From IMG/VR virus record IMGVR_UViG_3300045988_072096: DNA of 64,000 nt; one strand, given 5' to 3'. The translations under genes were made by a program, and so were the position numbers. This document shows positions 1-60,799 of this stretch, in pieces. Source of the stretch: a virus. Each line of letters starts with the position of its first letter. The first letter of the stretch is position 1. The notes below the pieces were generated by a model. That model did not search any database. It was not told the origin of the DNA and saw only the letters and a program-made list of their open reading frames with translations.

Positions 1-3000
1 CTAGACGTAGCGCCTATTTGAGGGAGTCTGTTATCGTATTCATGCAAGAATCCTATATTAGACCACGCTTCTTGCATTGTTTCCATAAGTTTGGTGTAAT
101 AGTTGTTTAAATCTTCATTTTTTGCAATTTGTTGTGCAATAGGATTAGTGTAAGATACACTACCACGACCAATCGTATTGTCAGTAAACGGCTACATTGT
201 TACTTTTGATGTTTCGTCAAATCTGGTATCAACCCAATTAGGATCGCTATTTTCAGCATCCAACTTAGAGTATAATTGCGTAGGCTGTTTTACTAATGCA
301 TCTATCCATTTGCCATCAATGCTGACTTTACTAGCTTTAGGTGCAGTAATAGTAAAGATACTAAGCGGTTTTAATGTATTATCGTTTACGTCTTTGAACA
401 TGAATTTTGCTATTTCCTATTGTACTCTAAGTCCGTTGTTTGGATTATTAGGGTGTTCGCGCTCTATGCGCAGTCTAATAGACTGTTCTATTTTCTGTAT
501 CCACGGTGTTTTTAATCCAAATTTATCTTCGTACTAAGCAGAGATTTTTCCAAGTAATTCAGCGTATCTTTCAGCCTAGTCTTTTGATACTTTATTACCT
601 TTAGATATTTTATATCTTTCTTTGGAGATTTGTTCATCAAGTTTTTTAAGATTTTCAAAGAACGGTTCATAGCCATCACGAATTTTTCCATTCTCCAAAT
701 CAAATACCTTTTCAATATTAGGATACGAAATACCTTTTAATTTTATCAGAGACATAAGTTTTCTACGCTTATTCTACAAATCCTCAAGAACTTCTGATGT
801 CCTGTTTCCAAATATTTTTGCAATTTCGTCCCATATTTTTGGGTTAACTGCAAGATACGTATTATTCTGTTCAAATAATTGTTTATTTGCAGCGTGTTCA
901 TATGCAGCTTTATATGATTCTTCGTCTAATTTATAAGCGACTTTATCTTTTATAAACATTTGCCATGCAGATAATTCATCTGCAATCTTACGTTCTACAG
1001 TACCGATTTCTTTTTCTTTTCCATTAGAATCGTATATTGAAGATAATTGAGCCTTTTGTCTCTCTAATCTAATCAACTCACGTTGTTTCGATATTGGCAG
1101 CAAATCTGTTCTTGTAGGCCCTTCTGGAAGAGATTTTCTGATGGCATTTATATCTCGATCTATTTGTTCCTAAGCTTTCAACGTAACAGATGACAACATA
1201 TCGATTCGTTTATCGTAGTAAGCCTTAGTAAATCTACGAACACAATGCGTAGCATACCAGTCATTTAATTTGTGACGATATTTCTTTTCAATATCTTCGC
1301 ATCCATCTGGAAACATTATTTGTCCATCATCATCGAATTGTAATTCATAGTCTTTATTACCTAATCTATCTGCTATCTGCTATTCTACGCCGTCTTTTCC
1401 CTATAATATGACGTTTAAGAATTTATTAAGCTCTCCATAAAACTTTCCGTAGTTGATTTCAGTAACCCAGTTACCAGTAAATCCGTTTTCATCTTTTTCC
1501 ATGAAAAGTTTTTCAACATTAGTTATGAGCTCCTTCCATTTACCTCCATTTGCTGCGATGGCTTTTTTACGGAGAATATTTAGTTCTGTACCACGCTTTT
1601 TGACTTCATTATTTCTATCATTAGTAATGGTATTTATAATATCTCCAAGCATTCTAATGACAGGTGAATTTACATGCTGAGTTAGTCCAACAAATACCTG
1701 GAACACATTCATATCTCCAAATACATTTTGGTCTTCTATCCAAGTATGCATACTATATTTCATACGTTCCTTTAAATCGGTAGAAAGGTTAACGTTTTTA
1801 TCAACATAATCATCAACAAATGCATAAATCTGTTTAGATATTGCATTTTCATACAATTGCTCACAATCAGCGATAATACTTTCTATTCCAGCTTGTGATT
1901 GTGTGCCCTTTAACATATCTAACAAATGCTGTTTAACTTCTTTTCCGTAGTATAATTCAAATGTTGGATCTGCTAATGCGCGGTTTAATTTAGATATAAC
2001 ATTTCTATAGAATTCAATCGTATTTTGCTTATACTCCTGTAAATCTTTAAACGTTATTTCTTTATCTTGAATTCCTTCTTTTCCTTGCTCATTTATATCA
2101 AGATACTGTATTCTGGTTTCTCCAGTATTTGGATCGACTATTTCTCTATAACACAGTCGTTTATACTTACCCAATTCTGCAGCACGTAAGATATTTATCA
2201 TCTCTTCTATTTCGTCAAACGCTCTTTCTGCAAATCTTGTTATCAGCTTAACATTCAAATCAATTTCTCCACCAGTATGCGACATATCGCGTTTATCTTG
2301 GTAAGATAGACGCTTTTTATTTAGATCTTTGACAAATGCTTCACGTTGAACACGTATTCCTTCAACAAACTTTCTAACCTCTTCTTCTGCTAATTGCATA
2401 TTCATCAAGGTTATAGGATTTTCCTAGGTCTTACGGTAAGATTTATTTCTAGATATCGTTCCTGTTATAATATTTTTTATAGCACTTTGTACTTTGTCAC
2501 CAAGAAGCGCCTAATATTCTGGATTATTACGAGCCTATATTCCTTCATGTTTAGCTTCTTTCATTAACGCTTTTATGTCTTTCTTTTTGAACATTCGCTA
2601 ATCGGCCATTTTAAATAACAAACGCTCTTTTTCGTTCATTTTTTGTTGCTCGTTTATTGCGAATGCTATAGCCATATTATTTAATAAAGCATTGCGTGTA
2701 AGACTATTGCGTATTTTAAATGTTTTATATAACATTGACCCAAATCTAGTCCAAAAATGTGCAAAGAATGAATCGTTGTTTGCATAATCCATGAACTAAT
2801 TGTCCATAGTTTTCATAGTAAGTAGATCGACTAAAGTTTCTTCACGTTCTTCGTCAGTCATTCCTTCTTTATTTACAGCACGTAATGCTTCTTGTACCAG
2901 TTTACTGCGCCAAAACATACGTAAATAATGGTGAGCCATCTCATGATTAAAAGTAGATGGGTCTGCTGAATTCAAAGCTATTCCTATTATATGATGCGCC

Positions 3001-5132
3001 ATAGTCGATTTGGTATTATAATCATAATATCCATTTGCATCATCTAGATATTCAAAGAATTGAACTAATAGCGAATCCTTCCCGTCTGCTGTCTTCCATG
3101 TGCCGTCTGACTATCTATGTAATCCAAATGCTGCTGCTAATCGTAACTATGTAGATTGCATTATTTTGCTTTGTTGCTATTCTACAAATTTATATCTAGC
3201 GTCTTCTACAGCCTACATAATGTCCGTATTTGGATCTTTTTCCAATCTTTCTTTTACAGCTTCTACTACAAAATCATCTTCTGTTTGAGATAGTTTTGTT
3301 AAGATAGTTTCTGTTTCAGAGTCCTATTGAGATTCAGACTCAGTAGATTCAGAGTCAAGTAATTCGTCTACATTTATGGAATCATCCGCATACTTTGATA
3401 CAGCCTGTTTTGCAATTTCCTATGATTGATCGAATGTATATCCATTATTATCCAAAATCTATAATACAACGCCTTCAATCTAAGATTGTGAGTTTTTATG
3501 AATAGAGTTGTCGATAATAGATACAACATTTTCTAAAGCGTTATTAAATTTATTTTCATCATACGCAGGAATATATTTAAGTAATTCCCTAAAGTTTGGA
3601 TTTGATACAAATTCTGCAATGAACTCGTGTTCGTTTTTAAGTCCATATACGTCGAGCATTGAAAAATATCTTGATTTATTAGCATTGTCGTATGCATTTA
3701 GGTAATCTACATATCCTCTAAGTACTGCTTTTATTTTAGGGTGCTCGTCTATATATCTACTAGTAACATAATGTACCGCTTCGTGTATTATAATATTACT
3801 TATGTGCGTATAACTACGAACGTTATTATTTAACGATATGACTTGCCCGTCTTCATCGTAGGAACAAACGCCACCGATAGATTCGTATTGTTCATTGAAT
3901 TTAAAAAAATAAACTTTACCGTTTGTATATCGTTTCAACGTACTAAGCAAACTACCAATATAAGTTTTTTGTTTGCCTTCCGGAGTAAAATTATAAATAA
4001 TATTTACCAGATTGGATAGCGAATTTTCTTTTTTCAATAATCCTCTAACGAAGTCAATATTATATTTATCTTCAAATATAGCAGAGTCTCTTGCGTTTTC
4101 ATATATAGCACGAGAGTTCTTAGCTAAAGAATTATCGTATATAGAAGCATATTTAACAAACTAGTTATATAATTTGTTTTTTATCTTATCTGAAACATTT
4201 GGTTTAATATCTACTATCTACTTAATTCTTTGCAATTTGTTATATTTTTGCTACAAAGCCATTTTATGTAAATTATGGCCTTCTATGAATATCTGTATCG
4301 CAGTATAAGCTTTGCCTTTTTGAGTCATTAATTGATGTTTATAATGTCCAAAATACTTATTAAGCTGTGCTTCAGTTATACCTGCTTTAAACAAATTTGG
4401 AAAGAATTGTCGTATTCTCTATTGTGTTATTATATCATAATCAGATATATCAGTAGTGTGTTTTCTTAAGAACGATAGCATGTTTTGGACATACCATTCT
4501 CCATAAACAGACGAATTGTCAAGCTATTTTTTATACTCAGATATTTTTTCCTAAAGTACTGGTTGTAAATTTTGACATATATAGTCTATTCTATTGTACA
4601 CATCGTCTAATGATACGTCACCTTCTTGTACACCATCTAATTCATCTCTTGTAAATAAACCTACTCCAAGTAAATCTCTTACGTAGTCATTGTATCTTAC
4701 TAAAAAATTACGATAATTGTCTACATCTTGCAGTTTTCTTAGTTTACCTTTTGTTATTCTAAGTTTACTAACAAAATTAACGTAATAATCCAATAAATCT
4801 TCTGGTATATGTTTTTCTATCATTCCAGAAAGTGGTTCCCTATTCTCATCTTGGAATACTGTATCCATATTAAACCAGTCACCAAATTTACTAAGGAACT
4901 ATTTTGTGAACACTTTAGCTTTTGAAGCAATTGCTCCAGCTATCATTCCACCATGTATTTTAAGTAGGTCTTGAAATAGTATAGAAGGCTCCCCATTGGG
5001 AGCCATGTCTATACTGTTTCCATTATTTTTAGACCATATATCGTAGGCACCTACTTCTCCTACAACGTCTTTAATCTAATTAAATTTCTCAGCAACTTGT
5101 GGTCTACTGAGTATTGGACACATTATTGCCAT
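1..5132 (-). CDS. Very large virion-associated protein, 3' end cut by the window edge (at least ~1,710 codons). It has two zincin-type HExxH motifs and requires TAG read-through.
   Basis: The seven listed minus ORFs 192..401, 774..1103, 1401..2408, 2598..2792, 2796..3002, 3480..4037 and 4551..4868 all share one frame (end coordinate = 2 mod 3). I walked every gap in that frame and found only plus-strand 'cta' (TAG), with no TAA or TGA. The ATG at 5132 lies 5 nt after the TAA of the upstream giant ORF. HEMAH is encoded at about 2928-2945 and HEAVH at 3771-3785. Confidence 0.7.
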
Positions 5133-5137
5133 ATTAT

Positions 5138-8100
5138 TTATCCTTTACAATGTTTACGTACTGTATCATCAAATTTATCGCTTGATTTAGCTTCTTCTTT
5201 TTCATTTTGTAATTCACTTCTAGCTATCGTTAATGATTTCGTAACTCCATCTTCATTACCTTTACGTATTATTTTAGCACTTTTTGTATTCAAGAGCTGT
5301 TTTAAGATTTTAGGATTCTATTTAAACGATTCTTTCATATTGTCAACCATCATGTCCACTGTAACCCTTACACTTTCATCTCCATATTGAGCTCTAGTGT
5401 CATTTAATGTTTGTCGCATTACAGTGTATGCTGAAGAACTATGCAATTCGTTTAATATTTTATCTTTAGCGTCTTGTGGAATCATCGAACTGTTCATTAC
5501 TGCTTCACAGTAATTAGCCTGTATTACATTATCATACTATATACCATTTTTTGTAAATGGCCTATTATACGTATTGCCAAATTGTTCAGCGTCTTTATGA
5601 GACAGATCGATCGGTTTTACTTCTTCTATATCATCAACATCGAAGTCATCATTCAATGAAGTATCTGATTTACCTTTTTTCTCGGAAGATTCTTTTTCAG
5701 ATTTTGAATATTTATCAATTAAAGCTTGCATATAATGCAAAATCTCATCTTCATCGTTCTATAAATTCTCTGACTTCTCTAGTGATTCAAGCTTTGCTTT
5801 AAAGCCACTATAAATATCATTTGGAGATCTCTTTATTGCATCATAATACAGTTGTTTAACCTTTTCTGCAAAATCTTTAGCACTAAGTTGTTCTTTTTGT
5901 AATTCTTTAATCCTCTCGTCTTTAACTTCAATGTCTTTAGCTCGAGATTTAAATTCATCAAGACTTTCTTCTTTTACTTCAGATTTAGCTTTATTTAAAT
6001 CTTTTCTAATCTTAGTTAGTATCTTACTTAATACACCACCTTGCTGTTCTACACCTTTAGAATTCTCATGAGAAATTGTCTTATCACCAGTATCTAGTAA
6101 TGCCTTTTTAGCTTCTTCATTCTACTGGAATGATTCTGTCATATATTTGGCGAGTAATTCATTATAGTCGTCACTCCACTTATTTGTATCAAGACCTTCT
6201 ATATTCTTACCATCTTTACGTGCTTGTATTGCTGATTCATCAGAAACTTTTTGCAATTTATCAAACAGTTCTTGTCCTTCGTCTGTTAAAATAATGTTTC
6301 CAGAAGCATCTCTCTCTTTTACATATTTACCTTCATCTGTATATAATAATTTAGTAGCCTAAATAGCGCCTTCAACAGAATTAAATTCAAACTTGCCTAA
6401 CCCGTCTATAGTAGCAGTAAACTTACGCTCTGATAGATTACTAAGTTCTCTATGTTGATCGTTGCCATAATGTACGTTTACAACCTTATCATTAGTTTTC
6501 TTATCGGATTTTTCAGTAGATTTACCTTTAGATTTTTCATCAGAACGCAATTTTATACGATGATCTTCATCTATATATTTACTGATTATCTCCTGAAGTT
6601 TAGTTTTAGTGACGTCTAATTCGTTATACTCAAATTCATCACCTAAACGTTTAATTAATTCAGTTTCAGTAAATAAAACCGGACTATTGTTGATAAGATT
6701 TGCAAATTTATCAATAAGAGTGTCTTCTGTAAATGGCTTATCTGACATCAAATGCTTACCGCTGAAGAATTTGTTTATAGCTTCTACTGTAGTATCATCA
6801 TACATAACCGGTCTTGTATATTGTGGTCTAATATAATCGTAATTATAACTTCCTGCACGCAATGTTGTAGAATTAGGTATAGTAATTGCGTATATCGGAT
6901 AAACGCCTTCTCCTGCACTTGCAGTATTTAAAGGTTTTGTATCTACAAGGCGATACAGTATGAAATTATCTGGGTCATATTTATCAAATCCGCGTTGTCT
7001 TACTTTTATAAATAACGGGAATTCCTACATTCCAGTTTTTTCATTCATAAAAGGTTTTATTGTAGAAATACGTTTTCCGTCTTTAGGGTTTGTTTTTACA
7101 CATGCCATTAATAAATTGACAGTCTTAGATTTTGATCTTGTGATAAAACTAGGTTTCCCGCCAGATTTACGCTGTTTCTGCACTAATATTTTCTTTGTAG
7201 AAACAGCTTGTGTGTAAAACGAAGCCTGCCATGATTTATAACGTTTAGTTCTAAATTCACGTACGATTTGTGGATCTGTCCAGTTATTATAACAAATCAT
7301 TGCGTACATTTCATCAGAATCCATCGGATAGGTTCCATCCTTAAAGTCGTCTTGTGCATTCGCCATTAAATCATTATATCCAGAATCAATTCTAATTGTG
7401 TTTGGAGCATACTTAAAGAACTTAGTTCCGCCTGTAGTGTCACCAGAAGTGTAAAACGCATATACAAATAGGTTTTCAGCAAATTGCTTAAATGTAATTT
7501 TCTGTTCTCCGTATTCTATGTAATGTTCTTCATCGTGATAGAGTTCGTCCCATGCGCGTTCTATTGCATTAGCGTTGTCACTATCATCGAGAACTGCATT
7601 TTCCAATTTTATGAATTTTGGATTAGCATACCCTTCTCTTTCTTGATATACGTCAGCCTATAATGCTTTTAATAGGGGATTTATTATAGTTCCATTAACA
7701 CCATAACTTGCAAACGAACCTTTCTTGTCATTTCTGATTTTATTCTATATCTTAAGTAGCTGATCTTGAATTGTATTATCGCCAAAAAACAAGCTTTCAG
7801 CATAATCCATAGCTGTCATTCCTCTATCTTCTGCATAGTCAGAGACGATGTCATCATCAAATATAAGCTATTTGACAACTTTCATCATACATCTTGATAC
7901 TTTTTTGCTCAATTCTTTATTTTGTTCAGAAGAATGGAACTTTGCCATAAGATCACTATGCATGTCTCTATATTGTTCAGTTCCTTGCATAGAAATTTGA
8001 CTAATTATACGTTCATATAAGCTTAATGCATTATTCGTCTTTTCCCCAATAAACGATTCGTTTTTAAGTCTATTAAGACCGTATTGTTCAAACAGTCTGT

Positions 8101-11100
8101 CATCGTTATCAAACACATCGTTGTATTTTGACTTAAACGCCTATTGTTCAACATAACTCTTACCTTGTTTTTTTGTATCAATTTTACAAGCATTAACTAA
8201 ATCAGAAAGTTTTTGTCCATATTTAGACATTTCCTAGTTTATATATGCCACGTACAATTGTACTTGTTTTGGTGATAAATCTATTGTTGTATCTACAAGT
8301 TGGCCATCATCGTTCTATACTTTAACATTAATTCTATATCTAGAAATCTTGTCTTCAAGATTATCAAACGACAATTCTTTATTTATATTATGTAAGACGT
8401 CCTTATTATTAAATATATCTTCAAGTATGCATCCAGATTTTGTTATAATCTCTCCATTATCTTGGATATATTCAAACTCGTTGCTATATGAACCATCGTC
8501 ATTTATTCCAAATAATGCTTTTGCAAATGATGCTATTGATTCCTCTACGTCAGTATTATTATTTCCAATATCTTGTAATGTCTTCTTTATATTTTTAAGA
8601 TTTCCTGTATTTGCGGCATCTTTAAAGTTATCGAGTATATAGTTAGTAACTGCAAATCTTTGTCTAGCAGCTTTGGATATAGTAATATCCTCCATATAAT
8701 TTCCACCTGCCGTTTCGTATACAGAAGCAAGCTCTTTCATAATAGGCTGCGATAAGAACATAAATGTACGCTCTCCCATACCTGTTCTAACTAATAAGTT
8801 AGTTGTATTATACGTAAACGTATTGATGTTTAATCGCTATATATACGGATCTTTGGCTACGTCCACATGAGCATTAATTAATCCTGATAGCCAAGATAAT
8901 TTTAAATTACCCTATTTATCTTTAAGACTGCTTAAATCAAGACATCCTAATTCTCTAAGAAGAGGACAATGGTCTGAGTCAAATTTAACACCATATAGCT
9001 GAGTTAAAATTTGACTATTGTTATTTAACGCAAACGGACCAATTCCGAATTTACCAACCACAAAGGATCCTCTAGTTCGTACCTAAAATGCAATATTACC
9101 AAACTTATATGCATATTCTTCTTGAGCCTATTTGTTTGTTTCAATTTTAGCCAATACGTTCTTGACAAGATTTGTATCTGAATCGATAGAGCGTAAACTG
9201 ATACCTGCACTTGCGCCATTTACAATTCCATTCTTTCCGAGATCTTTTCCATGATCTTTTAATATTGTAAGATAATAATTAAGAAGATTATTTCTAGATT
9301 TATCTTCAGAATCTTTCTTAAAATCAGTCGATACTTTGTCTATGGTAATCTTCTTTCCATTAGATTCTACCTCAATCTTATATGACCTATAACTTAATCT
9401 TGACAAATACAGTTTATCGATGTCGAAGTCAGAACCCGTAACCATTGTGAACTCTTTAGGAAGTACTATTGTATCTCTAACTACTGGCAAAACATCAACG
9501 AATCTTAATGCATGAATTGAAGATTGAGCCTGTGTAGGAATACGTGAAGCTATAGTGTTAGCTTTAGCATCTTTTCCTATAATCTTATTCTTTATAAGCC
9601 ACTTTCTACTTGCCTCAAAATCGTTTTTAAGACCTTCTGGTATTATATCCATAAAGAAATCTATAGATATAACAGCGTCCATACTTCCTTCCTCATTGAC
9701 AAGCTTAAGTTCGTTTCCATCATTAATTGTAGGAGAAAGTTGGTCGTCACCTAATATAGTCGGTTTACCTTCCATACTCCAGACAGATCTTTGATAAAAA
9801 GCATTTCCTTTTACATTAATGTCTACTATCTTTTTGTTTAGCTTTGCTACAAGTATACTCTGTATCCAATCGATAGAGGACATTGCTTCAAGATTAACTT
9901 TAAAATGTTTCTTTCCATCATTATCGACCTCTACTTGAATGCCATCAATCAAATTTTCATCAGCATCACGTGATTCTAATTCTTCTTCTAGGAATCTACT
10001 AAACTTTTCGATGTCTAATTCTCCAGAATCGTCAAACATCTCACGCTCGAGTTCTTCCATTCCGTACGTAGACAAATTATTGATCTCACGCATTATTTCT
10101 CGCAATAAATCTCTACCACGTAAAGTCTTTCCATCTGGAGTAGTATACTCTTTATTTTGTATAAGACTAGTAAGCGCAACTTTCGTCATCTGTGTACCCA
10201 TTTGAGCAAATTGCTTTTCATGAGGATCTGTATTCAACTGTTTACGTATGAATTTATATTCTTGATCATATGTATCAAACTAGAATGCTTCAAATGCCTC
10301 CTTGTCGTTAAGTAGTTTCTCTGTCAATTCTGCAGGAGATTGAGAACCTATCTTAACGGCACTATGCATCATTAGCATATCTATGTGTTGAGATTCCATT
10401 TTACTAAGTATTTGTTGAGTATATCCGGTGGCCATTTGCTTGAATAGTGGGAATAATGCAAACTTATTATAGTACTGTATTTTTATATCTCCTACAGGTC
10501 TATATCCATATGCACTGTATTTTTGTGCACCAAGCATTGCTTCGTATATAACTTTAAATGCCTACTTATTACTAAGAATATTGCTTTTTCGCTTACCCTC
10601 TAGATATTCAAAGGCCTCTCTTACAGGTTGTGTATACTTTCCAAGTTGACGTAATAAGTTTTTAGCCATTTTTGGTGTTATAAATGCAGCACCGTCTGCC
10701 ACATTTATCTAAGCTCTGCCTTTTTTATCAAGTCCAAATGAAGATGCTTCGTCTTCACCACGCTTTTTTGCTACATTAAATAAAGTAATCTAACCAGCAG
10801 ACTCAAAATCATTCTTGATTTCATCAAGAGACATCTCATTTACACCATTTTTTCCATATATCCTATCTGCAAGTTTGTCTAATTCATCTTGATCAACTAT
10901 ATCCTTAGACTTATATTCATAATAAATTTGACGTATTTCTGCATCTTGGAACAAAGAATTAAGCATATCCAATTGGTTAGATACAACCATTTGATCTTCT
11001 ACTTCTGCGCATTTATATTTGCTACGTATTCCAACCATATATGGCCTATTTCTTTCTCCAGTAGAGCCAAGACCACCAAGACGCTTAGTTTGATCGCTAT

Positions 11101-14100
11101 GTCTATCTACAAGACGTTTTACGCCATTTACAATGTCATATACCCATTTATATGATATCGGATTTCCAGTATATAAACGTTCTATTTCTTCTTCTGAGAT
11201 AATACCTCTTAAATATACATCCCACATATAAGCAAGTACAGCCTAACTTCGTGCTTTTGCTGCATTTTCTATTGTTATATTAGATCCACTTGGAGTTAAT
11301 TCAGCTTCATATTTAGCTTGAAGCTTATCTATACATACACTGTCGAATGCGACGTTTTTATATGTATAAAGTCTTCCTAACTTCTCAACACCTTCGTTGT
11401 CGTTTACAATTGCTCCACAATGTTCTGCTAAAGCTAAGTCATCGTAAAAACCTTCTTCCAGTGTTAATGCCATCATTTCTGCGCGTTGCTTGTCAGTAAC
11501 ATGATCTCCAAAGAATAAATCATCTGCTTTTTGTAAATAATACAACGGATCTTTATCGCCAGTTAAATGTAACCATCCGATACTTCCATCGTCTTTTCTA
11601 TACGCAATCTTCGTCAAAGAACCAAAGCGCATTCTATTATCACTAACACGCTCTATCTTTTTCAATATATTAAGAATAGATTTATCCTTTTCTTCATTTC
11701 GTTCTATTTCTCGTGCTATGGCATTTCTTTCACAAAAAGCATATTCGATCATCTGTCTGATCTATAAATCATATGGATTTACGCTTATGTGTAATTCACC
11801 GCCAACTTCTGTTACATGTAACAAATCGGAAGTCTATGTGTTTGTAATATTATGATAATCGATACCAGGAGTTTTTATTCCATCCAAAAAGAACCATGTT
11901 GATTTATCACTCAACGTAGGAAATACAATTCTACCTGCAGCAAGCATACCGCATTTACCTACAAAATCTTCACGCTCAGACGTCTTAGTATATTTTACAC
12001 CTCCTTGATAATCGCTATCAAGTCTAGCACCATTGTATGTCTACAATTTAAGTTTAAACTTATCTCCTGTAGCAATATACTTCATTATAAGAGATCCTAT
12101 CCTTTGAATACGGCCTGCAACTTTTCTAGTTGACCAACAGTAATTCCACTTAGATGAATCTTTAAGAATTTTACTTCCAGTAAAACTATCATTTTCCTTA
12201 TCATACCCACCTTCATTGATATCTTCAGTCATATCATATGCAGTGTGTCTCTGTGCCATTGTGTAATTCTTAGTACCTTCTGGACCATTTGTCATAAGGT
12301 CTGTAGATGTTTTGTTATATCTGCTGACAGCTTGCGCACACCATTTTATAAAAGAGTTGTCTGAATAAATATTTGTTCCAGACGCGAATTCCCTACTTCT
12401 GCCTTCAATTACTTCTTTCTTACCGGTCATCAATATATCGTTAATTTTTTCTTGATTTCCTTTAAGTAATGTTTGGCACAATGAATTTCCATTTTTATTA
12501 TATACGACAGATTCTATGAACTTCTAAAATGACAGATCTTGTTTAGCACTTGTGATTAGATATCCAAATGCCTTCTAAATAGATATTCCATTGCCGATAG
12601 TATCAAAATGTTCTCTTAGAGCCATTTCTAATGCAGGCTTTTGGATATCTATACCCAAGATATTCAAGCTGTTTATAAATTGCTGTTCGATATATATAAA
12701 ATCATCTTTGCTATTTTTATCGACATCTCTTTCTCCGATTTTATGTGTTTTTGCGACAGTTGTATACAATTTGTATATTTCACCCAATGTATCTTGCGCT
12801 TGTTTTAACAAAACTCTACCAGTTTCTTCTTCACCATTTTTAACAAACTTTATATTTCCATTTTTGTTCATGAAGAATATTCCGCTAACTCCAGTTCTAA
12901 ATTGTGCGAACCATTGCTTAGGGAACATACTTGCCGCATAACCACTATCTGAAGATTTAATACTGCTTGTATATTTACCATCCACTGGCTGTCCGTCCTC
13001 ATCGTGTACTTGAGAGAATACTACTTGCATAAAATCAAGTTTCTAACATGATACGAAATTAAATAACTGAGTAGCTAATGCTTCACTACTTGTGGAATCT
13101 ACATCGTAATCATATTCACTGATTACATTTCCGCTGTCTTTTCCATCTTTATCTGCTGATGTGAAATAAATTCCGTCTTCTCCATTATGCTAGAAATATG
13201 AGTTTTTCTTTAATGGTTCTCCATCTTTGCCAATCAGTATATACTTACCATCATCGTGTTTTTTAATAGAGTTATTTAGCAAAGCATTTAGCTTATGCTC
13301 AAGTCTATAAAATACAGGTTCAGTTTCTGCTAATTCATGAAGTTTCTACAATAGATCTTCTGCAGACTTACAATCGTGACATGCAGATAACAATAGATTC
13401 TTAACCTGGTTTCTAGGTACATATCCTGTAAAGCCTAATATTCCTCTATTGTTTGGTATCATTACTCTACTACCATCTTTATTCATTGTAGATTTTACTC
13501 TGCCAACTTTAACGTCTTCTTCAGTAGCAAATCTTTCGTCTGGAATAGTACTTAACATAAATCTTACTGCAGCAGTTGTGTCTTCAGAACGATCGTGCGT
13601 GTAAAAAGCATCATCATGTGCCGCTATTTCTTGACCTATATATGAACTATTCTCATCATCTGCTACATCGTTTTCATCATCTTCTTGTTTCTGTAGTCTG
13701 TCTAATTGAGAATCGATTCCGAGAACCTATAAACGTCTATTTATTTTCTGTTCGATTATATCCCAATTATTCTTATCGAATAACTGAGCGAACATTTTTT
13801 GAGATTGATTTAAGTCTTCAAATTTACGCTTATTTTCCTGTTCACGTATAAGAATAAGGATTTGTTTCTTTAGTTCGTTTATATCACCCTTTTCTACTTT
13901 AGCTGCAGCCTATCTTGTTAACTCTGCTATTTCCTATGATCCGTAATTTGTCTTATAGTACTATATAGCATCTTGTACAGTCATACCGTCATTTATATAT
14001 TCTCCAGTTAAGACTCTAAAGAACGCAGAATGTTCAGTACTTTCCTTTCCGTGAAATAATTTTTGCATTGAGCTTAAATCAGTAACAATTCTTGCTGCAT

Positions 14101-17100
14101 TTGATGCAGTCATATCTATACTATATCCCTGAATGATTGTAGATACTATATGATCAAGAGCTTCTTCGAACATCTGCATTCCACCAAATGCAGGAAATTC
14201 AGACAAATCTATATGAACTCTTTCAGATGTACGTTTACCATCTTCATCAGTGTGGTAACGTTTTCCGCTGATGGTAAGATACATTTGCCCATTAAAATCA
14301 TTGACAAAACGTTCAATATTAGCTTGTTTAGGTTTAATGTGTCTAAATATTCCAGAATTGGCCATAATAAATAACATAGCGAATTTACGGTCTCCTAACG
14401 CACGAAGTGCTTGTATATATTCTTTTATTTCATTGAATATCTTACTAACTTTCCAAAAGTTATTCCACTTAATGCTTATATGTTCTCTGTCAATCATAAA
14501 CATTCTAAACATTTCTGCCAATCCTTCAGCTACATCACGTTCTGTAAGCTTTCGTCCATGTGATTTTTCAAAGGCCGCTCCGTAATGTTCAGCATATCTC
14601 TAGTAAATCTTTTTACGTCGTTTTTCTCCTACAAGTAATTCAAGTATTCTATGGAATGCTTCATGATATTGAGCACCTTCTGGAGCATGCTTACTTAATG
14701 TGATGGTATCTGTTGATATCATACCGGCTACTCTTGCTCCATTGGATAACGTTGAAAGTTCATGCTCTACGAATATTAGTGGAACATTGCCTACAAGACG
14801 CTTTGTTTCTTTTTCAACAAACCTCTATTGTTCTTCAGTTAATCTACTATTTGCCAATTGATCAGTGACCATAAGCATACCAGGAGCACCATCATCAAAT
14901 AGATTACCGTCCATCCAAGACGACCCATTACTAGCATCATCCAATGCTTGATCAATACTAGCATCATCCCAACCGTCATCGATTTTACGTTTATTTGGTT
15001 CTTGCTCAGTCTATTCGCCTTCTTTAGTCTGCTGTTCTTGACTTTTTTCTGGCTTATGTTCTGGCTTTATTACAGATTTTTCTTCAACTTTTGTTTCTTG
15101 TTGAACTCCAACCTATCCTCCATCTGATGCTGGTTTAGCATCGTCTTCTGCTTTTTTCTTTTCAGCTTCATCGGATGTTTTTTCTAATTCTGTTATGGAA
15201 ATCAGAGGATTTTGTAATGATTCTGCATTAGTTCTAGCGTACCCATGCTTTATCATCCATCCTGCAAAATCAAGACCTTGCTCATAATCATCTCGTGTGA
15301 TTTCAAAATCTCCAAATTTGATTCTAGTTATATTATAATCGGTATTTTCAAATATACGACACACGCTGCCAAAGAACCCATTTTGGTCGTTTAGTTTAGA
15401 GCGCATTATACCAGCTTGATTTATATGCATGTCGACCAATGCTAATATGCGTCTAAGTCTTGCTAAATCTCCAGCATCAGTAATATCTAAAACGATTGTC
15501 GGTCTTGTTAGTAGTTTTGTCTTAGGATCTACAACAGGAGCCTACTCCATATCTGTTATCAAAATCATACTTCGATTTTGCGTCTTCTAATCCGCTCCTA
15601 CTGCATATTGAAATATAAAATCGTGTCCAGCAAAACTTGCCTATCTACCAAAACGAGTTATCATTTTTAGTATCTGCTGGCAGCTTATTCGTGACATCTC
15701 ATTTGATACTTCACCTTTATCGTCATATATATGTATTCCGTTGAATATAGTATCAGTGTTCTGATCATTTGCACTCGCAATCTACTGCAAACAATTTACA
15801 ATTAAATCAACGTCATTAGTTTCAAATTTTTTACCTCTAAGTGTTATATACACAACACGCATTGGTGCATCTACTGGGTCTTCATCGTACTTAAACTTAT
15901 ATAAGAATACTACACTACCTGCTGGCATATGTTCATCTTGAGTAAGCTCATTTCCTGGCAGAGGAGTATATCCCTTCGGTAACGGTTTACCATTTTCGTC
16001 CAATTTATTTGTATCACCTATAGTAGATCTATTCGTGTCACTGATTTCAAATATTTCACCGTTTTTACCAACAACTCCAAGCAAACTATCTTCTCCATTG
16101 AGCAATTTAGTAAGTGTAGACTCGCCAACTATAAATTGTGTATCCATTAACGAATGGTTGTTTTCGGAATACACCAATTGTCCATTGGTACGTTTAACAT
16201 TTTTAGCTACGATATATTCACCGGGCTTCAATGAATTAAACAATGATCTGTATTGACGAATTAAATTTCTAGCCATTATACTGTAATTACTTGGATCAGA
16301 TTGTACGTCCGAGTTACTTCCAGGTTCATTACCTAATTCATTGCCCAAACGTATTCGCATAGATTTGCTAAATTTAATGACCTTACTGCCCTTTGGAGCA
16401 TATGTGATAGTTACATTAAACGTTCCGTCGTCGTTTCTATATATTTTAAACTGTGAATTAACTATAAAATCTGATTTTATTATTGATTCCAGATAATGAG
16501 GAATAGTCTTTAAGAAATCAATAGTGGAATGAAGATTGTTAAATTGATACCAATGCTATTTTCCAGCTTCAGGAACAATTTCAGTCTGGCTATCTTCCCA
16601 GTTTTTATCAAGTAAGTGTTTGTCCTAATTATTTAAACTATCTGGAGATGGAGAACTATCTGTTGAAGATTTATATTCTTCAAGTTCCTGATCAAACTGT
16701 TCACCAATTGAAACTATATTTTGTTTTAATAAATCATATTCCTGTAATATAGATGCATGACTATCATCAGATACTAAATTATTTATGTGATTAATAAACT
16801 AGTTTGCAAGCTTTATAAAATCCCGCATTTTATTTTCAAGATCGGCAGAAACCCAATGATAAATATCTACATAATCTAATATATCTTGATACTACTAAAT
16901 ACTACTCTATAAGTCATCACAACATTTCTAATAATATTCACGATGATTTGTAGCACTATCGTCGCTCTATAAGTAATTATCTAATGCAGAGAATTCATCT
17001 TCAACTATAGTTCCATTTAGATTAACAATACCCTATGATTGTACAGTACTCATGTGGTCAACATCATTGCCGGCGTTGTCATAATCTACATAAAATGGCA

Positions 17101-45342: not shown

Positions 45343-45410
45343 AATGTAGCCTCCTTATACTCTTCTTCAGAAATCTAAATAAATGTACAATTAAGTTTAC
45401 CACAATAGCC

Positions 45411-46095: not shown

Positions 46096-46097
46096 AA

Positions 46098-48596
46098 TTA
46101 CTTACTTCTGGCCGCTTCGGCATTTGTTTTGTTCTTCAATGCAGTTTTAGCTTTAAGCTGTTCTCTTTCCATAGCAGCTTTATCTTTTTGCGCTTGAAGT
46201 TGTGATTCATGTTTCATCTTATCTTTCTCAAGCTATATCTTAGCGTCTTCGATCTCTTTCTTCTATTTAGATTCGTAGCGCTTAGAGTAAGCATCTTCAC
46301 GGATCTTCATCTGTGCAGTAGCATCTTTAGCTATCTCCATAGGATCTGGTATACCATTCTGATTAGCATCTTTATCTTCAGTACCACGATATGCAGAGAT
46401 CTCAGCTACAGTAATCTTAGTAGCATTGTCTTGATCTATCTTATATCTATCAAGATCCATTTGAGCTTCTTGAAGCATGAGCTCTTGTTGTTTAGCTTCA
46501 TTCTACATCTGTTGAAGCTGTTGCTGTGCTTGTGCTTCAGCTTGTTGCTGTTGTTGTGCTTGTTCTTCTTGACGTTTTTGCATAGCTGCAAGTTTCTGTT
46601 TAATGATATTAAAGTTATCATTAGTGAGTATTTCAGCTGCTTCAAGTAGACTAGCACCATTCTGCATAGCAGGTTGTATAAGCTGTTGGAGCTTCTGTAT
46701 GTTCTCAAGGTCTTTAGAAGTATCACTTACAAATACGTCCATATCTTCATAATAGAACTTATCTGCTATGTCAAGAAATGCACGCTCTCCATTGTCAAAT
46801 ATGTATGATAGTTTCTTTTTGCCAGTCTGTTGCCAAGCACCTTTAGCCGTATTAAGTAACATATTTAACACATGACGTTTACATTGAGCATGTGCCCAGA
46901 ATAAAGGTTCAGTAATATGTGAAGATTGTACAACAGAACGCTCAACATTACCAACAAGTTCTGAAGAACTGATAGCACCTTGGCGCTGTTCTGTAATACC
47001 AGATATAGTTCCAGCAAGTTGTTCGATCTTATCCATCAACTGAATATATTCAGATATAACATTAGACATCGTAAGATCTAATGCTGCAATCTGATTAAAT
47101 GAAGCAGGCTTACTGCCGTCTCTGCCCGGAATACCCCACTACGTCTCGTAAGGATTTACGAAATTAACTCCTACACTAGAAAGATAATGCATCCAGCGTT
47201 CCGGTGTAATATTCATAGATTTAGGTATCTGCGTAATATCCATGTTGATAACTTTACCTTTGTCACGAGCGATGGCCAATTCAAGTCTATACCACAATAC
47301 AATGTACATATACTGTAATGGCTTGAGTATACTTACAAGTGATCTAGGTTTACTATTAGTATTACTATATACACAACCGCAATATGGAAGTTTTTGGCTA
47401 TTAGGATTGTCAATACTTACGTGTTGGTATTCAATAGGCTGTATTCCAAAATACAAATCACTACCTGCACGATATCCTTCCCATACTTCTACAACCCAGT
47501 CTGGTTCCACAGATAATTCATTACCTATCTTTTTATACGACTCATCGGCAATTTGTACCTGAGGAGTGCCTGTCTCATCCATGACTGTTACGTAAAATAT
47601 CTTTTTAAAAGATTTCCAACAACAATGCCACACATTTATACAGTATCTACTTTTCTGATCAAATTCTGGATTATCGTATATATGCATCTATATTCCACCG
47701 CCGGTATCTACAGGATCACCTTCTCGCATATCACCCATTGGTTTTCCAGTGAGCATTTCATTGAGTTTATTTAGATCTTTTTCATCTAATTTGTTATAGT
47801 ACCTATCATACACTTCTGCTATTGGCAGTCTCATCTTACGACAACACCAAGATCCATCCTCTATAAATTCTAGATCGGGACTTTTATCATATGAAAAATA
47901 TAACGGATTAACACGTTCCATGTATGGTTCATCATTCTGAACACCTATATAGTATATCTCACTGCCGGAGATAAGTGCATCTTTCCATCCTTTTATAAAT
48001 TCATTGTCTAGGTTAAGCTTTTCTCTTAAGTAGACTAGCGTATGATACGCTGTATTTTCAACAGCATCTTTATACGTACTATCCATATATTTAGCAATTT
48101 GTTCAGGAGGCATTATTTCGCCATTTTGTAATTGCTGTTGAAATTGCTATTGTTGTTCTGGATCCATTTTGGCCATTATTGCGGACATCATATATTGAAT
48201 AAGCATATCCTTCTCTTTGTCCATTAAATCAGACGCAGCTTCCTAAGATGTGCGCACTACTCTAAAGTTCATGGGTCTCTTTGTTTCCTCACCAATGAGC
48301 AGGTCAATCTTAGGGCGTATGATATTAAAATCCTAAGGTGTTGCTGGGAATCCATCGTCTACTTTAAACGGATTTGTTATTCGTTTAAAATCTTTTTCAT
48401 CAAAAATACTATTATATAGATTATAATAAGTCTGCAGCTCCCCGAATTGTGTATTCTATCTTCCGCCTGATACAATATTACCTTCTCCGATAATATAATT
48501 CACACAACTGTGTTGCCAATCCTCATTCTTCTTTGATAGAGGTAACTTCTGTTGCGGAAATGTTGCATTGTATAAATTATCTTCTATTCTAACCAT
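46098..48596 (-). CDS. Portal protein, 832 aa with TAG read-through
   Basis: ORFs 46263..46478, 46503..47069, 47139..47687 and 47688..48113 share a frame (2 mod 3) and are joined only by TAG. ATG 48596 lies 2 nt after the TerL TAA. TAA is at 46098-46100. The call rests on its size and its position directly after TerL. Confidence 0.75.
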
Positions 48597-48598
48597 TG

Positions 48599-51500
48599 TT
48601 AAAAACTAAATATCGGTATATCATCTTGTACGCTATTGTCCTAGAACCACTATGTTCCAAACAATGGCAATTCAAAGAGTTCAACCTATTTATTCTATTC
48701 TTGTGATTTGCTAACCTTCACCTAGTACAACTCTTCTCGATATATCATAACCATGCATAATGCTATCACACGGTCTACGTTCTTAACGCCATCATTTTCT
48801 ATAAGTTCTTCTATTAAAGGTTCGCTATATACTCTCTCTACGTTAGGATGCCCAGGTTCATATTCCTCAAGTAACCACTCTAGGATAAGTCCTTCTCCAT
48901 ATGCTCTAATCTATTTAGTCATATGACATCCTTTACGTCTTTGTACCTTACTGTCCTTAAAGACCTCAGAAATAATCTTATCGGGCTAATCTGCAAGTAA
49001 GTAATCACAGTGTTTGTTTGTGAAGTACGGGTATATACCCTTACGTTCATTCTCAAATAATAATCTAGCATTATAGAACACTAATAGTTTTCTGACGTTC
49101 TCATAATACTCTTCTGCTGTATCAGGCCTACCTGAATATTCTGCTACTATTACATCATTCCAAGCTTCGCCAGCTTTTACACGTTTGAATATGAATACAG
49201 ATCCTAATGAATTTGTAAATGAATCATCATGGTCATCAATTTGTTATCGTTAAGCTTTTTATCTTAACTTCTACATGTCCCCATGTAGTTCAGCATATAT
49301 TATCACCAAAATGGCGTCGAGCACTCGTGGGAGAATTATATTTATTCATCTCCTATGCGTTACACTGTCTTATAGCCTTTCGCAATCTATAAGATTAGCA
49401 CGGTGTTTTCTGTTCTAGACTTTCACCGTTTTTACTCGATTATACCCCGCTGATAATTAACGGGTCGCAGTTATGTGTCAAAATGTTTCTGCACATAAAT
49501 GTATGTGTACCACATTCAAAATTGTATACATAACCGCTATACAACGATGATTCTATTTTTTCTATTTTGATCAGTATTTTATTATCAACGAATTTTATTT
49601 TACTTTTAGCAATTCCAGTAGTCTTAGAAAGTTCTAATACTTTTATCTTTCTGCTCCTGTATTGCGGATTTACAGCAAGAAACAAATTATCCTATCTACA
49701 TACATTTATTCTATACGATTGTTTTGATATGCCACCAAACCTGTTTTTATTCTATTTCTGATGCAAAACGATCGAATTGCGTATCTTTAATGAAAACAAC
49801 ATATCCTGTATATCTTCCAACAATTCTAAATTAACACTTGTAAAATTGCATCTAACTTTTCCATTGTCGTAAAATACAGATCCGTCTGTATCTAAGTATC
49901 CTTGTATAAAAGCTAACTTTAGATCTTTTGGAGACTATTTAATCCATTCCGGAACTCTTTTATTATACGCATTTGTACCGAATTGTTCACATAAATAATT
50001 TGCAAGATTTTTGTATGTAAACCTACGTGTATTTTCTCTATTTTTATGTACATGCACGCATTTTCTTTTGAATAATTTGTCAATTAATTTATCATACATT
50101 TCTGCAAATTCGGTCTCGTCTTTACCTATAGATAAATATATATCGTGTGAATTTTTATTTATATTTACAAATCCGTCTCCAAGCCATAAACCTAAGAAAT
50201 AATAAAAAAGTTGTTTATGTTTGTCCCCATTTGTTTCATTATTATAATATCTGTTTGGAATTTCAAGCCAATCTGTTTCGCTCAAATCTTTAGCTTTTAC
50301 AAAACCTTTATTGTGTATCCATATAGGATGTTCACTAGTAAACGTAGTTGTTCTAAATGATCCATACGGCTTTATTTTAAATATAGGTTCGTTTTCTTTT
50401 CTATATAACTATTGATTATGTATTTCGACAAACTGATTATCTTTATTCAACAACTTATCGTCAAGAGTAACATCTTCGACATTTACCAATCCTCGCTACG
50501 TATAAACCTTTTCTCCAGGTGTCAAACATCCTCCAATATACAATCCAAATGGCGGATCTTTTATGGGATATTCCCATATAACTATAGATCCATGTGGTTT
50601 ATCTCCTTTCTTAAGCGGATATTCAGTAATATCTCCAGACTTCTTTTCTGTAGCTATTATCTAACCATTACCATCCCAATTGAGATCTACTATATGTTTC
50701 ATATTACGTAGTTTTGTATTTGTACGTATACGTGTAAGCTAATCCATCAAAAGTTTTCTTGGAAATATATTCTTACCTAACTCAAGTACAGCCTCTCTTG
50801 GTTTAATAGGACGTTCTGATATAAATCTATCTATGGACTATTGTGAAGCACCTCCGTCTTTAATCTTATTACGTTGTTCTATTAGATTCTCAATAGCTTT
50901 CTCACGAAGACTATTTCCGTCTTTATCCATATAGATATAATTTCCATCTTTGTCAAAAGATTCTAGATTACTCCATGAAGGAACAAAGAATCCACAATTA
51001 GTTTGTTCAGCATTATCATCCCATATGTTTGGAAATGCTAATACGTTATATGCTTCAGGTTTATAAAATAATTCCTTCAAACCTGTAAATGAAGCTCCCT
51101 CTGTACCACCTGTACCATAAGCTATCATTAGACCAAAAGCTACACCGTCGTCAGTTTCTACAGACGGTTGTTCTATTCGCCACGCATCTAACAAGCCGGG
51201 GAACTTACCTCCCTCCTCCCATAGTACTAATTTACCACGAGTACCACGAATACGTTCTGGATCGTTCTTAAGTGTTATTCCACTAATAGATGACATATAA
51301 CCTTGTTCAGTCTATTTACCAAATTCGTCAGTTACCTTATAACCAGCTACGCGTTCCATACGAGTAGATACAAGCCTTTGTTTAGCCCATGCTGTATTCT
51401 TGTCTATAAAGTCCATGATTTGCCAAGCTTTTGTTAGCAAACCATCTCCTATTAAGAACTTTTGTTCTGATGCTACAGCAAAGTTTTTAGATCCAGGTAT

Positions 51501-59135: not shown

Positions 59136-59338
59136 CTGTACGTTTGTTTTTTGTTTGTTTTAAATCTGGTTTTCAGCTTAAACTTAAATAGCGTATTGAA
59201 TAATATGTCTTTAGTTTCGTCTCCCTTCATCAAGTCTACTGTTTGTTTAAAAGGATGTTTACATACACTACTTACAATCTATTCATCTATATTAAGTTTT
59301 TTAGATACTTCTTTTATGATATCATCTATATCAATCAT
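59132..59338 (-). CDS. Hypothetical small protein, 68 aa, with one in-frame TAG. It is missing from the ORF track.
   Basis: ATG 59338 is nested in the end of the upstream gene. The sequence reads MIDIDDIIKEVSKKLNIDE(Q)IVSSVCKHPFKQTVDLMKGDETKDILFNTLFKFKLKTRF... with the TAG at 59279-59281. TGA 59132-59134 forms an ATGA overlap with the next gene. The ORF fills a 195-nt region that would otherwise look intergenic. Confidence 0.5.
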
Positions 59339-59738
59339 TCTTTACGGCAACAATATCGAAATATCTGATAAGTCTACTATCTTTAAGTAGATCAAAAGGC
59401 ATTGTTCTAGTATGTTTGTAAAGAATAACATCTCCAACTTTTATTTCCATCAAAGTCGAATGGTTATTAGTTTCTTTGTATGTAATAGGAACTTTAATTA
59501 CAACACCTTGCTGATAATCAGATTCTACTTCTTTTACCTCGGTTTTAGGAGTTCCTTCAACAGCTTCTACGCCATCAGCATCCTTAACCGGTTTACTATT
59601 TGGAAGCTCTGTAACTTCCTTCTTTACCATAATCTTGTCCAGCGGTTTTACAAGAAAGCAATCATGAAATGTATAAGGGATTTTTTCTGCAACGCTTTCT
59701 GCTAACTGCGACTGATTCATCAATTTCTCTTCGTTCAT
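59331..59738 (-). CDS. GroES-like co-chaperonin, 135 aa
   Basis: The pattern LVKPLDKIMVKK...QGVVIKVP...IKVGDVILYK...YFDIVAV follows the GroES/gp31 signature. It has a TGA stop, and its ATG forms an ATGA overlap with the upstream gene. Confidence 0.5.
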   Translation of the reverse strand: MNEEKLMNQSQLAESVAEKIPYTFHDCFLVKPLDKIMVKKEVTELPNSKPVKDADGVEAVEGTPKTEVKEVESDYQQGVVIKVPITYKETNNHSTLMEIKVGDVILYKHTRTMPFDLLKDSRLIRYFDIVAVKND

Positions 59739-60136
59739 TTTCTAAGGTTCTTTAGGTGGTTAAGAGTTTTAATGAGATTTTTAAGTACAGTAGTCTTTTC
59801 TACTTTAAGACATTCGGGAACATTATCCATATCAGTGTCAATGTTCTTGAGATCGCTTGTGTATGTATTAAGCATCTTATCGATCTCATTGAATACATTC
59901 ACGAAAGGCTTCTTAGGTTCGTCCATATCAACAATTCCCTCTTCTGCCATTTCCTTCATATAATCAGCAGATACTGTAAATTCTGATATAAGCGATGATT
60001 TAAAATCGCCAGAATCATCAGTACGAGTAAACTCATCATGCTGCTTAGCAGTATAACTACCATCTTCATTCAGCTCAAATGTATCACCAGGAACCAAATG
60101 CATAAACGGTTTAATAACATTTAATGTTTTTGTCAT
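59735..60136 (-). CDS. Hypothetical protein, 133 aa, the first gene of the minus-strand block
   Basis: This corresponds to ORF 59735..60220. The internal ATG 60136 (MTKTLNVIKPF) is preferred, leaving a divergent intergenic region of about 180 nt. Confidence 0.55.
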   Translation of the reverse strand: MTKTLNVIKPFMHLVPGDTFELNEDGSYTAKQHDEFTRTDDSGDFKSSLISEFTVSADYMKEMAEEGIVDMDEPKKPFVNVFNEIDKMLNTYTSDLKNIDTDMDNVPECLKVEKTTVLKNLIKTLNHLKNLRK

Positions 60137-60182: not shown

Positions 60183-60217
60183 TTTGGTTGCAATAGGTAA
60201 ATATTTTTATAATTTTG
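60183..60217 (+). promoter_or_regulatory. Candidate Bacteroidota-type promoter (-33 TTTG, -7 TAnnTTTG) for the plus-strand block
   Basis: TTTG is at 60183-60186 and TAATTTTG is at 60210-60217, within the divergent intergenic region. The 23-nt spacer is slightly longer than I recall for the consensus. Confidence 0.3.
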
Positions 60218-60319
60218 CAACTTTTTCGTGTATTTTACGTTATGTCGGCATAAGAAGGGGGACTATAGGGGGTTAATAAACTTATATAGTCTATATTAAC
60301 ATAAGACTAATAGATTTGT

Positions 60320-60799
60320 ATGAATGATATAGAATTAAATGCTATTTTATACTACGCTGATCTTCTAAGTCTAAAAGAAACTTCTACACCAGTAACAGAT
60401 AACTGTAAGTGGTATTTCGTACATAACATGCCTATGAATAGTGCATGTATAGTAAATCTAATGCCTACATATGATGAAAATAATAAATATTTCATACAGG
60501 CTAAAGAAGATTACTATAGACTAAAAGAGAAGTTCTTAGACGATGGGGTTAAAAGTATTGTAGGACACATATGCAATTTGGATGCTCTTGGCTGTATAAA
60601 TGCAGAGCAAATGCTCAAGTGTATACACCAATATAGTTCTCGTAGGGAACGAGCATAGTCATTCAGTAAATACTATAATTGGAAGAATAATCAAATATTT
60701 ACGCATAAAACAATCAATGAGAACGGAGATGTAGTAGAACAAGAATGTACAAAATATGTGTTACACGCTGAAATAGGCCGCAGAGGACATACGCTTTAA
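60320..60799 (+). CDS. Hypothetical protein. It is 112 aa if TAG 60656 terminates translation and 159 aa if TAG is read through to TAA 60797.
   Basis: ORF 60320..60658 ends in TAG. The same frame stays open for 46 more codons (SFSKYYNWKNNQIFTHKTINENGDVVEQECTKYVLHAEIGRRGHTL) before TAA, which is unlikely by chance in AT-rich DNA. Confidence 0.55.

Follow-up and report, generated by a model that had tools for sequence, protein, structure and literature searches.

Reassignment of the TAG codon, very probably to glutamine, in the late genes of a delta-group crAss-like phage

Viral DNA of 64,000 nucleotides (nt), available as IMG/VR record IMGVR_UViG_3300045988_072096 and analyzed here over its full length (the window), raises the question whether TAG still acts as a stop codon in its genes and, if not, which amino acid it specifies. 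An earlier examination of the letters alone, made without database searches (the sequence-only reading), had claimed that the interruptions checked in the long minus-strand frames are all TAG, and that TAG is a sense codon, most likely for glutamine (Gln, Q), from position 1 to 60799. According to our analysis, the window very probably covers roughly two thirds of a phage genome from the Suoliviridae (delta-group crAss-like phages), and TAG has been reassigned to Gln in the late genes of this phage. It is strongly supported that this is a textbook case of a known phenomenon, as TAG-to-Gln reassignment has already been documented for delta-group crAss-like phages. Its occurrence in late genes was described in 2021 (Yutin et al., PMC7886860), and in 2022 metaproteomic data from two crAss-like phages proved that TAG is decoded as Gln (Peters et al., PMC9523058). 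That the phenomenon is known from crAss-like lineages had been pointed out before, in agreement with both publications and with the closest RefSeq record.

The window has a G+C content of 34%. Stop-to-stop and first-ATG lists of its open reading frames (ORFs) revealed minus-strand genes arranged head-to-tail from position 1 to approximately 60100 and a plus-strand chain beginning at 60320. The presence of the capsid, portal and large terminase (terL) genes and a gene order as in crAssphage cr131_1 (NC_055902.1) place the phage in the Crassvirales, Suoliviridae (delta group). Phage cr131_1 (Suoliviridae, Oafivirinae, Cacepaovirus simiae) is the nearest RefSeq genome, with 93.6% nucleotide identity over 73% of positions 36000..60000 (megablast). 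It originates from macaque faeces, whereas the closest relatives of the window, two 94-kb ENA contigs (L207 and L208) that are 99% identical to it, are from the human gut. A portal query retrieved 122 crAss-like records. By contrast, a PHROGs search with ten late proteins yielded almost no functional names.

TAG in the reading frames of the late block

For the gene set used here, only TAA and TGA were regarded as stops and genes were started at the first ATG, which resulted in 31 minus-strand ORF calls in the block 1..56485. Read in this way, the frames fused exactly as the sequence-only reading had predicted. Of the 31 calls, 25 use TAG as an ordinary sense codon, and so does one plus-strand gene. 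Altogether, 242 in-frame TAG were counted in the 18,373 codons of the block (13.2 per 1000 codons), where TAG accounts for 25% of the sum of TAG, CAA and CAG. In the same genes there is not a single in-frame TAA or TGA, which had also been claimed, while the other two coding-strand frames contain 1779 TAA and 1237 TGA. Chance can be excluded in view of this zero against approximately 3000. Coding densities under translation tables 11 and 15, a comparison already envisaged from the letters alone, diverged strongly: ATG-initiated standard-code ORFs of at least 60 amino acids on both strands cover 55% of 1..56485, the TAG-sense genes 97.3%, and the longest ORF is extended from 557 to 5874 codons. 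The resulting gene map is as compact as foreseen, with junctions consisting of ATGA or TAATG overlaps or of spacers of 1-7 nt. As terminators, 34 TAA, ten TGA and no TAG were found. The only ambiguous case is an HNH ORF (55610..56485), in which one TAG lies 7 codons ahead of its TAA.

In-frame TAG is present in the portal, terL, scaffold-like and holin genes and in small ORFs, all of which had been named before. The right-hand limit of the claim, position 60799, was likewise borne out: a plus-strand gene at 60320..60799, the only one on this strand with an in-frame TAG, carries it at 60656..60658 (codon 113 of 159), and its homologues align over 146-152 residues and thus beyond TAG.

The opposite explanation is that TAG still terminates translation and that the long frames are pseudogenes, assembly artefacts or strings of short genes lying in the same frame. 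The standard code does yield many ORFs in the region, of up to 557 codons. However, beside the lack of in-frame TAA and TGA, the homology of the portal, terL, tail and giant proteins passes straight across the TAG positions, and standard-code relatives possess uninterrupted ORFs at these loci. The two human-gut contigs showed TAG at 67 of 67 (L207) and 60 of 60 (L208) aligned window sites. Since the same TAG occur in independent assemblies, sequencing errors can be excluded. Judged by the alignments, termination at TAG is already refuted, and hardly any probability remains for it. Relics of former stops were not discernible either, since approximately four genes have TAG in their last 12 codons compared to approximately five expected (hand count), i.e. 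there is no enrichment at the 3′ ends. In practice, the standard code shatters the region into hundreds of fragments and loses the largest genes, so that gene callers need a TAG-sense table.

The effect is most pronounced in the giant genes on the left. One of them (1..5132, minus strand) runs off the window, which contains its N-terminal 1710 codons with 29 TAG and neither TAA nor TGA. The other (5138..22738, minus strand) is continuous over 5866 codons; the 87 TAG reported for it were recovered (88 from stop to stop). It contains an RNA-polymerase-like stretch, ...TGSDFDIDKL..., at approximately 9416..9430. The possibility that this ORF consists of several genes joined by TAG was considered and rejected. 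The cr131_1 record divides the homologous region into gp50, gp49 and gp48. The alignment of the window protein passes without a break from the C-terminal ...EFTKITGSD of gp50 to gp48, which it enters at codon 2 (FDIDHLYL...). An insertion of approximately 910 nt with gp49 (L002 15903..16813) splits the giant gene of cr131_1 at ...TGSD/FDID..., while the window is uninterrupted at 9425..9430. Hence, what looks like a gene boundary in cr131_1 results from an insertion into a single gene. The DFDID motif at the insertion point belongs to the type by which multisubunit-type RNA polymerases bind their catalytic metal. The giant-gene proteins of the two phages are merely 26-44% identical although the phages otherwise share approximately 93% identity, which indicates a mosaic of modules.

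Amino acid encoded by TAG

For the assignment of TAG, the codon was written as X, the window proteins were aligned by tblastn with the DNA of 88 related loci and the partner codon was read at each site. The loci comprised cr131_1, four other RefSeq crAss-like genomes, 80 IMG/VR loci around the portal and two ENA contigs. Twelve loci without any in-frame TAG in 900-3800 aligned codons, which follow the standard code or at least do not conflict with it, formed the standard-code set. Portal homologues from protein databases (95-99% relatives) were excluded as evidence in favor of DNA loci because these entries are code-15 translations in which TAG is written as Q (gene look-ups do not translate to the query), and their Q is circular evidence. 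The same applies beyond the portal: public protein databases already translate such genomes with TAG as Q, making a database Q circular for the meaning of the codon.

Opposite 136 aligned window TAG sites (gaps excluded), cr131_1 has TAG at 76, CAA at 15, CAG at five and GAA at eight, the remainder being scattered. In high-scoring segment pairs with at least 80% identity, 30 TAG sites were variable, and the alternatives were led by CAA (17 sites), CAG (12) and GAA (7). The reverse comparison gave the same picture, as the TAG of a relative corresponded to CAG (24) or CAA (20) of the window at 44 of 67 sites. As two mutations separate CAA from TAG, their exchange reflects selection on the amino acid rather than mutational proximity. 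The two closest standard-code relatives (75-76% protein identity) revealed Q at 15 of 21 (L036) and 11 of 15 (L037) window TAG sites. Within the portal gene, CAA or CAG occupies the site 48333..48335 in all twelve standard-code relatives, 48243..48245 in nine, 46503..46505 in eight and 48147..48149 in seven. The last of these sites had been highlighted for its position in a Gln run, which was found as ...DPEQQ-TAG-QFQQQ. For the terL site 50739..50741, seven of eight standard-code relatives have CAA or CAG. In the giant gene, 9083..9085 is the single site with Q in the predicted proteins of all aligned homologues (13), and the DNA of the five sampled contains CAA or CAG in four and TAG in one.

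A likelihood test, based on conditional residue frequencies from the same alignments, was performed with seven non-redundant standard-code loci and with eight recoded loci. In the former, Q was the best residue, followed at a distance by glutamate (E, -110 nats) and lysine (K, -119 nats), and arginine (R) was not among the eight best-scoring residues. In the recoded loci, E fell 333 nats behind Q. For the giant genes, whose relatives are equally divergent from the window (26-44%) and all recoded, Q was again best, with E at -16 nats and R at -56 nats (64 sites). These distant homologues, all of them TAG-recoded, came by another route, since an IMG/VR locus search with a 900-residue piece of the giant protein retrieved nothing. 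As a control, the positions of the window's own Gln codons were examined: standard-code relatives have a Q majority at 27.5% of the TAG sites and at 32% of the Gln sites, but at no more than 5.7% of the sites of any other residue. The TAG sites thus mirror the Gln sites of the window itself, and the control settles the meaning as Gln. As far as sequence evolution can tell, the alignments demonstrate that the TAG positions of the window are equivalent to Gln codons. The assignment to Gln made by the sequence-only reading consequently stands in the alignments, the likelihood test and the control. In particular, TAG positions did not fall on random residues of the standard-code orthologues; Gln codons predominate there and homology continues past TAG.

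Two further contexts noticed earlier were found as described. The gene at 38213..38959 has a Gln-rich tail with 7 TAG in its last 38 codons, and TAG at 45960-45962 occupies the conserved Gln of the GIY-YIG motif (HINAHL-TAG-SAWNKYG). In an alignment of this GIY-YIG ORF with I-TevI of T4 (PDB 1MK0), two of four aligned TAG, including the one at 45960-45962, fall on I-TevI glutamines. A link to protein data is given by a related 94-kb phage, whose portal peptide VAVMDITQIPK contains a recoded Gln proven by mass spectrometry (PMC9523058, Supplementary Data 6); at the aligned position, the window portal (...VINMDITQIPK) has a conserved Gln encoded canonically.

It is very improbable that TAG is a sense codon for another residue, i.e. 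Glu, Lys, Arg or pyrrolysine. Glu codons are indeed the second most common partners of TAG, but an exchange of Q for E is the usual substitution pattern of Gln, and the likelihood values given above argue against Glu, Lys and Arg. Moreover, Arg codons are nearly absent as TAG partners in close relatives, and mass spectrometry in the related phage gave Gln (PMC9523058). The designation tRNA-Pyl, which ARAGORN assigned to a transfer RNA (tRNA) with CUA anticodon in the window, could be taken as a hint of pyrrolysine. However, this is the name the program uses for any CUA anticodon, and the TAG sites are unlike Lys sites, although no search aimed at pyl genes was made.

Suppressor tRNA

The tRNA was detected by ARAGORN at 57463..57536 (minus strand), the label Pyl being assigned purely by the anticodon. 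The Rfam tRNA model aligns with 57466..57534 (29.8 bits), and the 72-nt RNA at 57464..57535 folds into a cloverleaf at minimum free energy. It has U1·G72, the discriminator A73, U8, G10, A20 and the anticodon loop CUCUAAC, and no CCA end is encoded. The gene is identical in contig L207 and 90% identical in locus L027, whose portal shows 79% identity. In L027, three pair changes in the anticodon stem are fully compensated, and the window molecule is therefore under selection as a tRNA. A blastn search of the suppressor against phage records produced no match.

The relatives hold at least five other CUA tRNAs, so that at least six types exist including that of the window. The atypical type is shared by the window and L027, while cr131_1, cr272_1 and cr53_1 carry others, several of which are clearly tRNA-Gln-like. 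Several of the relatives' suppressors have the D arm, the variable region and A73 in common with Bacteroidales tRNA-Gln(UUG) from genomes. The suppressor of cr131_1 is located at the same map position (L001 34971..35043) but its sequence is unrelated (43 of 72 bases identical). This diversity points to repeated replacement of the suppressor. It is conceivable, though rather doubtful, that suppressors have been swapped repeatedly in place with more than 240 TAG keeping their meaning, and that the window tRNA gains its Gln identity in a non-canonical way, with little more than the CUA anticodon to specify it; in a more radical version, part of it would be charged with a wrong amino acid.

U35 in the CUA anticodon is a strong determinant for glutaminyl-tRNA synthetase (GlnRS). 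A well-known counterpart is supE of E. coli, a tRNA-Gln with CUA anticodon that acts as an amber suppressor, inserting Gln against release factor 1 (RF1). supE arose from a canonical tRNA-Gln by point mutation, whereas the window tRNA is divergent and its Gln identity is deduced solely from codon alignments. Charging with Gln is thus suggested by these alignments together with U35, not by the body of the tRNA.

Several findings weigh against the reassignment to Gln. With 29.8 bits just above the Rfam threshold and a bulged A in the T stem, the suppressor is atypical. It shares 39-41 of 72 bases with Bacteroidales tRNA-Gln; U1·G72 and A73 fit the U1-A72 and A73 of these tRNAs, yet overall identity is no better than to tRNA-Arg. 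Its top match in the reference set was a tRNA-Arg(UCU) from candidate phyla radiation (CPR) bacteria, with a score of 23 compared to 21 for the suppressors of sister phages, and A20 is present as well, which would favor arginine. On the other hand, the reference set, drawn from the pattern of a single genome scan, is biased to CPR bacteria, and the resemblance of the tRNA to the Gln-like sister-phage suppressors is just as strong. Genes for release factors or aminoacyl-tRNA synthetases were not seen in the window, though not every protein was run against Pfam. The base following TAG corresponds to the overall codon background and shows no anti-termination bias. A Q majority in the standard-code relatives was reached at just 11 of 40 TAG sites, many of which are variable, although the window's own Q sites behave alike. 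The peptide support comes from related phages and not from the window phage. Finally, as regards the proposed temporal switch, one gene outside the late block (60320..60799, plus strand) contains a TAG.

Distribution of TAG and proposed timing of late gene expression

Along the minus strand, followed as it is transcribed, no TAG occurs in the genes between 60136 and 54251. This stretch comprises small genes, the tRNA-Val, the suppressor tRNA, 56822..57445, the dUTPase gene and 54251..55276. TAG begins at 52755..54248 and continues to the edge of the window. Oriented like the recoded block and located upstream of it, the suppressor tRNA is found among TAG-free genes, at the border with the late genes. 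On the plus strand, genes are TAG-free from 60874 onwards. The replication module falls outside the window.

Four late genes lack TAG altogether, namely the major capsid protein (MCP) gene at 40532..42043 (Pfam Crass_capsid, E=1e-208) and the genes at 36343..37437, 39697..40449 and 54251..55276, all on the minus strand. At a TAG share of 25%, the probability that their 42 Gln codons include no TAG is approximately 5e-6 by our own arithmetic. They also prefer CAG (35, compared to 7 CAA), whereas the late block contains 500 CAA and 221 CAG. In the MCP gene, CAA is missing and all 15 Gln codons are CAG. That the most abundant virion proteins are encoded without TAG and by CAG only suggests that suppression may be less efficient than normal decoding. 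By contrast, genes around the holin are rich in TAG. The holin gene (34174..34716) has 2 TAG among 4 Gln-type codons, its membrane/coiled-coil neighbor (33564..34220) 6 among 13 and a gene nearby (32424..32912) 4 among 7, all on the minus strand. This matches the published bias of lysis cassettes, but in a single genome it is not statistically strong.

The most likely mechanism is the one already published for recoded phages. In an infected Bacteroidales host with the standard code, translation would begin with the TAG-free genes. The phage tRNA(CUA) would then accumulate and might be charged with Gln by the host GlnRS, and the charged suppressor could outcompete host RF1. Full-length virion, lysis and giant proteins would thus be completed only late. 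While the sense use of TAG, its equivalence to Gln, the tRNA and the distribution over the genes are documented here, charging by GlnRS, competition with RF1 and a role of recoding in timing are inferred.

Another scenario dispenses with any switch by the phage: the host or a host suppressor reads TAG as Gln and the phage mirrors the host code throughout. Some recoded crAss-like genomes are without a detectable suppressor tRNA (PMC7886860). However, the phage's own CUA tRNA is under purifying selection, and TAG is wholly avoided in 55363..60136 and 60874..63886, which would be needless in a host with TAG as a sense codon. In addition, recoded phages and prophages occur in standard-code Bacteroidota (10.1101/2021.08.26.457843). 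A mere reflection of the host code is therefore quite improbable compared with recoding by the phage itself.

Relation to other recoded phages

The RefSeq record of cr131_1 contains full-length, read-through coding sequences and a suppressor annotated as tRNA-Gln at the corresponding map position, and in these respects it resembles the window. The two genomes differ in the MCP gene, which is split by an HNH element in cr131_1 and intact in the window. There is no essential difference from the phages of Yutin et al. (PMC7886860), in which TAG occurs in terL, portal and RNA-polymerase-like genes, recoding is mostly found in late genes and suppressor tRNAs are present, as are TAG-containing terL inteins and group I introns in core genes. 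L3_063_250G2_scaffold_974 (94 kb, code 15; PMC9523058) has the same family-level gene set, but its peptides differ from the window proteins and it is therefore a different species. Its MCP is devoid of code-15-specific peptides, matching the TAG-free MCP gene of the window (PMC9523058).

Borges et al. (10.1101/2021.08.26.457843) presented a lysis-timing model for recoded phages and reported that genes of the lysis cassette are biased to TAG. The window agrees with it in that its early block is free of TAG while the adjacent structural and lysis genes are recoded, the suppressor tRNA is located upstream of the recoded block and the neighbors of the holin are TAG-rich. Unlike the systems of Borges et al., it revealed no gene for release factor 2 or an aminoacyl-tRNA synthetase among the proteins run against Pfam. 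With its TAG-free early block, the suppressor tRNA at the border and the recoded late genes, it provides a clean example of the published model. Small additions are the TAG-free, CAG-preferring capsid gene and three other late genes of this kind, and the non-orthologous suppressor tRNAs of close relatives.

Other genes of the window

To the right of the giant genes, three large virion/tail genes follow on the minus strand at 22744..24441 (7 TAG), 24449..26851 (11 TAG) and 26854..31608 (1584 codons). For the last one, about 20 TAG had been stated for 26854..31545, and 20 were counted in the complete gene. TAG is present in 11 of the 13 small or medium-sized virion and lysis genes at 31535..39681 (minus strand). 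One of them is the late gene with the Gln-rich tail (38213..38959), where TAG accounts for 12 of 22 Gln-type codons. The portal gene (46098..48596, minus strand) has 832 codons including 9 TAG. The terL gene (48599..51938, minus strand) is composed of exon 1 (51938..49460) with 9 TAG and exon 2 (49236..48599) with 7 TAG. Three genes at 51941..54248 (minus strand), the first TAG-bearing ones downstream of the suppressor tRNA, contain 1, 2 and 6 TAG.

The block compatible with the standard code (55363..60136, minus strand) includes the dUTPase gene with its two exons, 56822..57445 and genes for a small membrane protein and a co-chaperonin-like protein, among others. Apart from an intron-borne HNH ORF, no in-frame TAG is found in it. 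The tRNA-Val gene (58278..58353, minus strand) is part of this block. The TAG-free plus-strand genes (60874..63886) include thyX at 61856..63526.

Inteins, introns and tRNA-like elements

The window contains many mobile elements, which hamper its annotation regardless of the code. A LAGLIDADG intein of 353 residues (CLTPGEKV...ILTHN/C) with in-frame TAG is inserted in terL at 49473..50528 (minus strand). Three codons after the intein, terL is split again by an intervening RNA of 223 nt without ORF (49237..49459, minus strand). The contiguous terL proteins of cr272_1 and cr10_1 read ...GGCDPYDHD... over this junction. The terminal U of the 5′ exon takes part in a U·G pair of a P1-like hairpin and the last base of the element is G, both of which are hallmarks of group I introns. 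An RNAalifold analysis of nine relatives revealed 54 pairs, 21 of them with compensatory changes, while Rfam gave no match to the intervening sequence at E≤1. In the cr131_1 record, the intervening stretch and exon 2 are left unannotated.

The thyX gene on the plus strand also harbors a LAGLIDADG intein and encodes 556 amino acids, compared to approximately 270 in cr131_1. The dUTPase gene (55363..56820, minus strand) is split by a group I intron (...GVIDA / intron / YRGEILLKF...), whose core was identified by Rfam (Intron_gpI, 55700..55916, 55.4 bits). The HNH ORF 56485..55610 resides in this intron, and its 3′ end overlaps the ribozyme core and the 3′ splice site.

The GIY-YIG homing-endonuclease gene (45339..46097, minus strand) lies between the portal and the next gene and is frameshifted. 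The +1 frameshift occurred in the T-run at 46060..46063 (plus-strand numbering), where the window reads GTAAAATGG and the relative L008 GTAAAC-GG. Three independent assemblies share exactly this frameshift, and the window strain therefore probably carries the gene as a pseudogene.

Beside the tRNA-Val, two tRNA-like elements were detected on the minus strand. At 58168..58250, Rfam recognizes a tRNA (39.6 bits) whose anticodon loop or insert measures 15 nt; ARAGORN calls it Ala(agc). The other, at 58063..58133, combines an acceptor stem with a perfect T arm, lacks normal D and anticodon arms and matches tRNA-Sec weakly (23.8 bits). Both are kept in cr131_1, with 89% (58168..58250) and 98.5% (58063..58133) identity, and are unannotated there.

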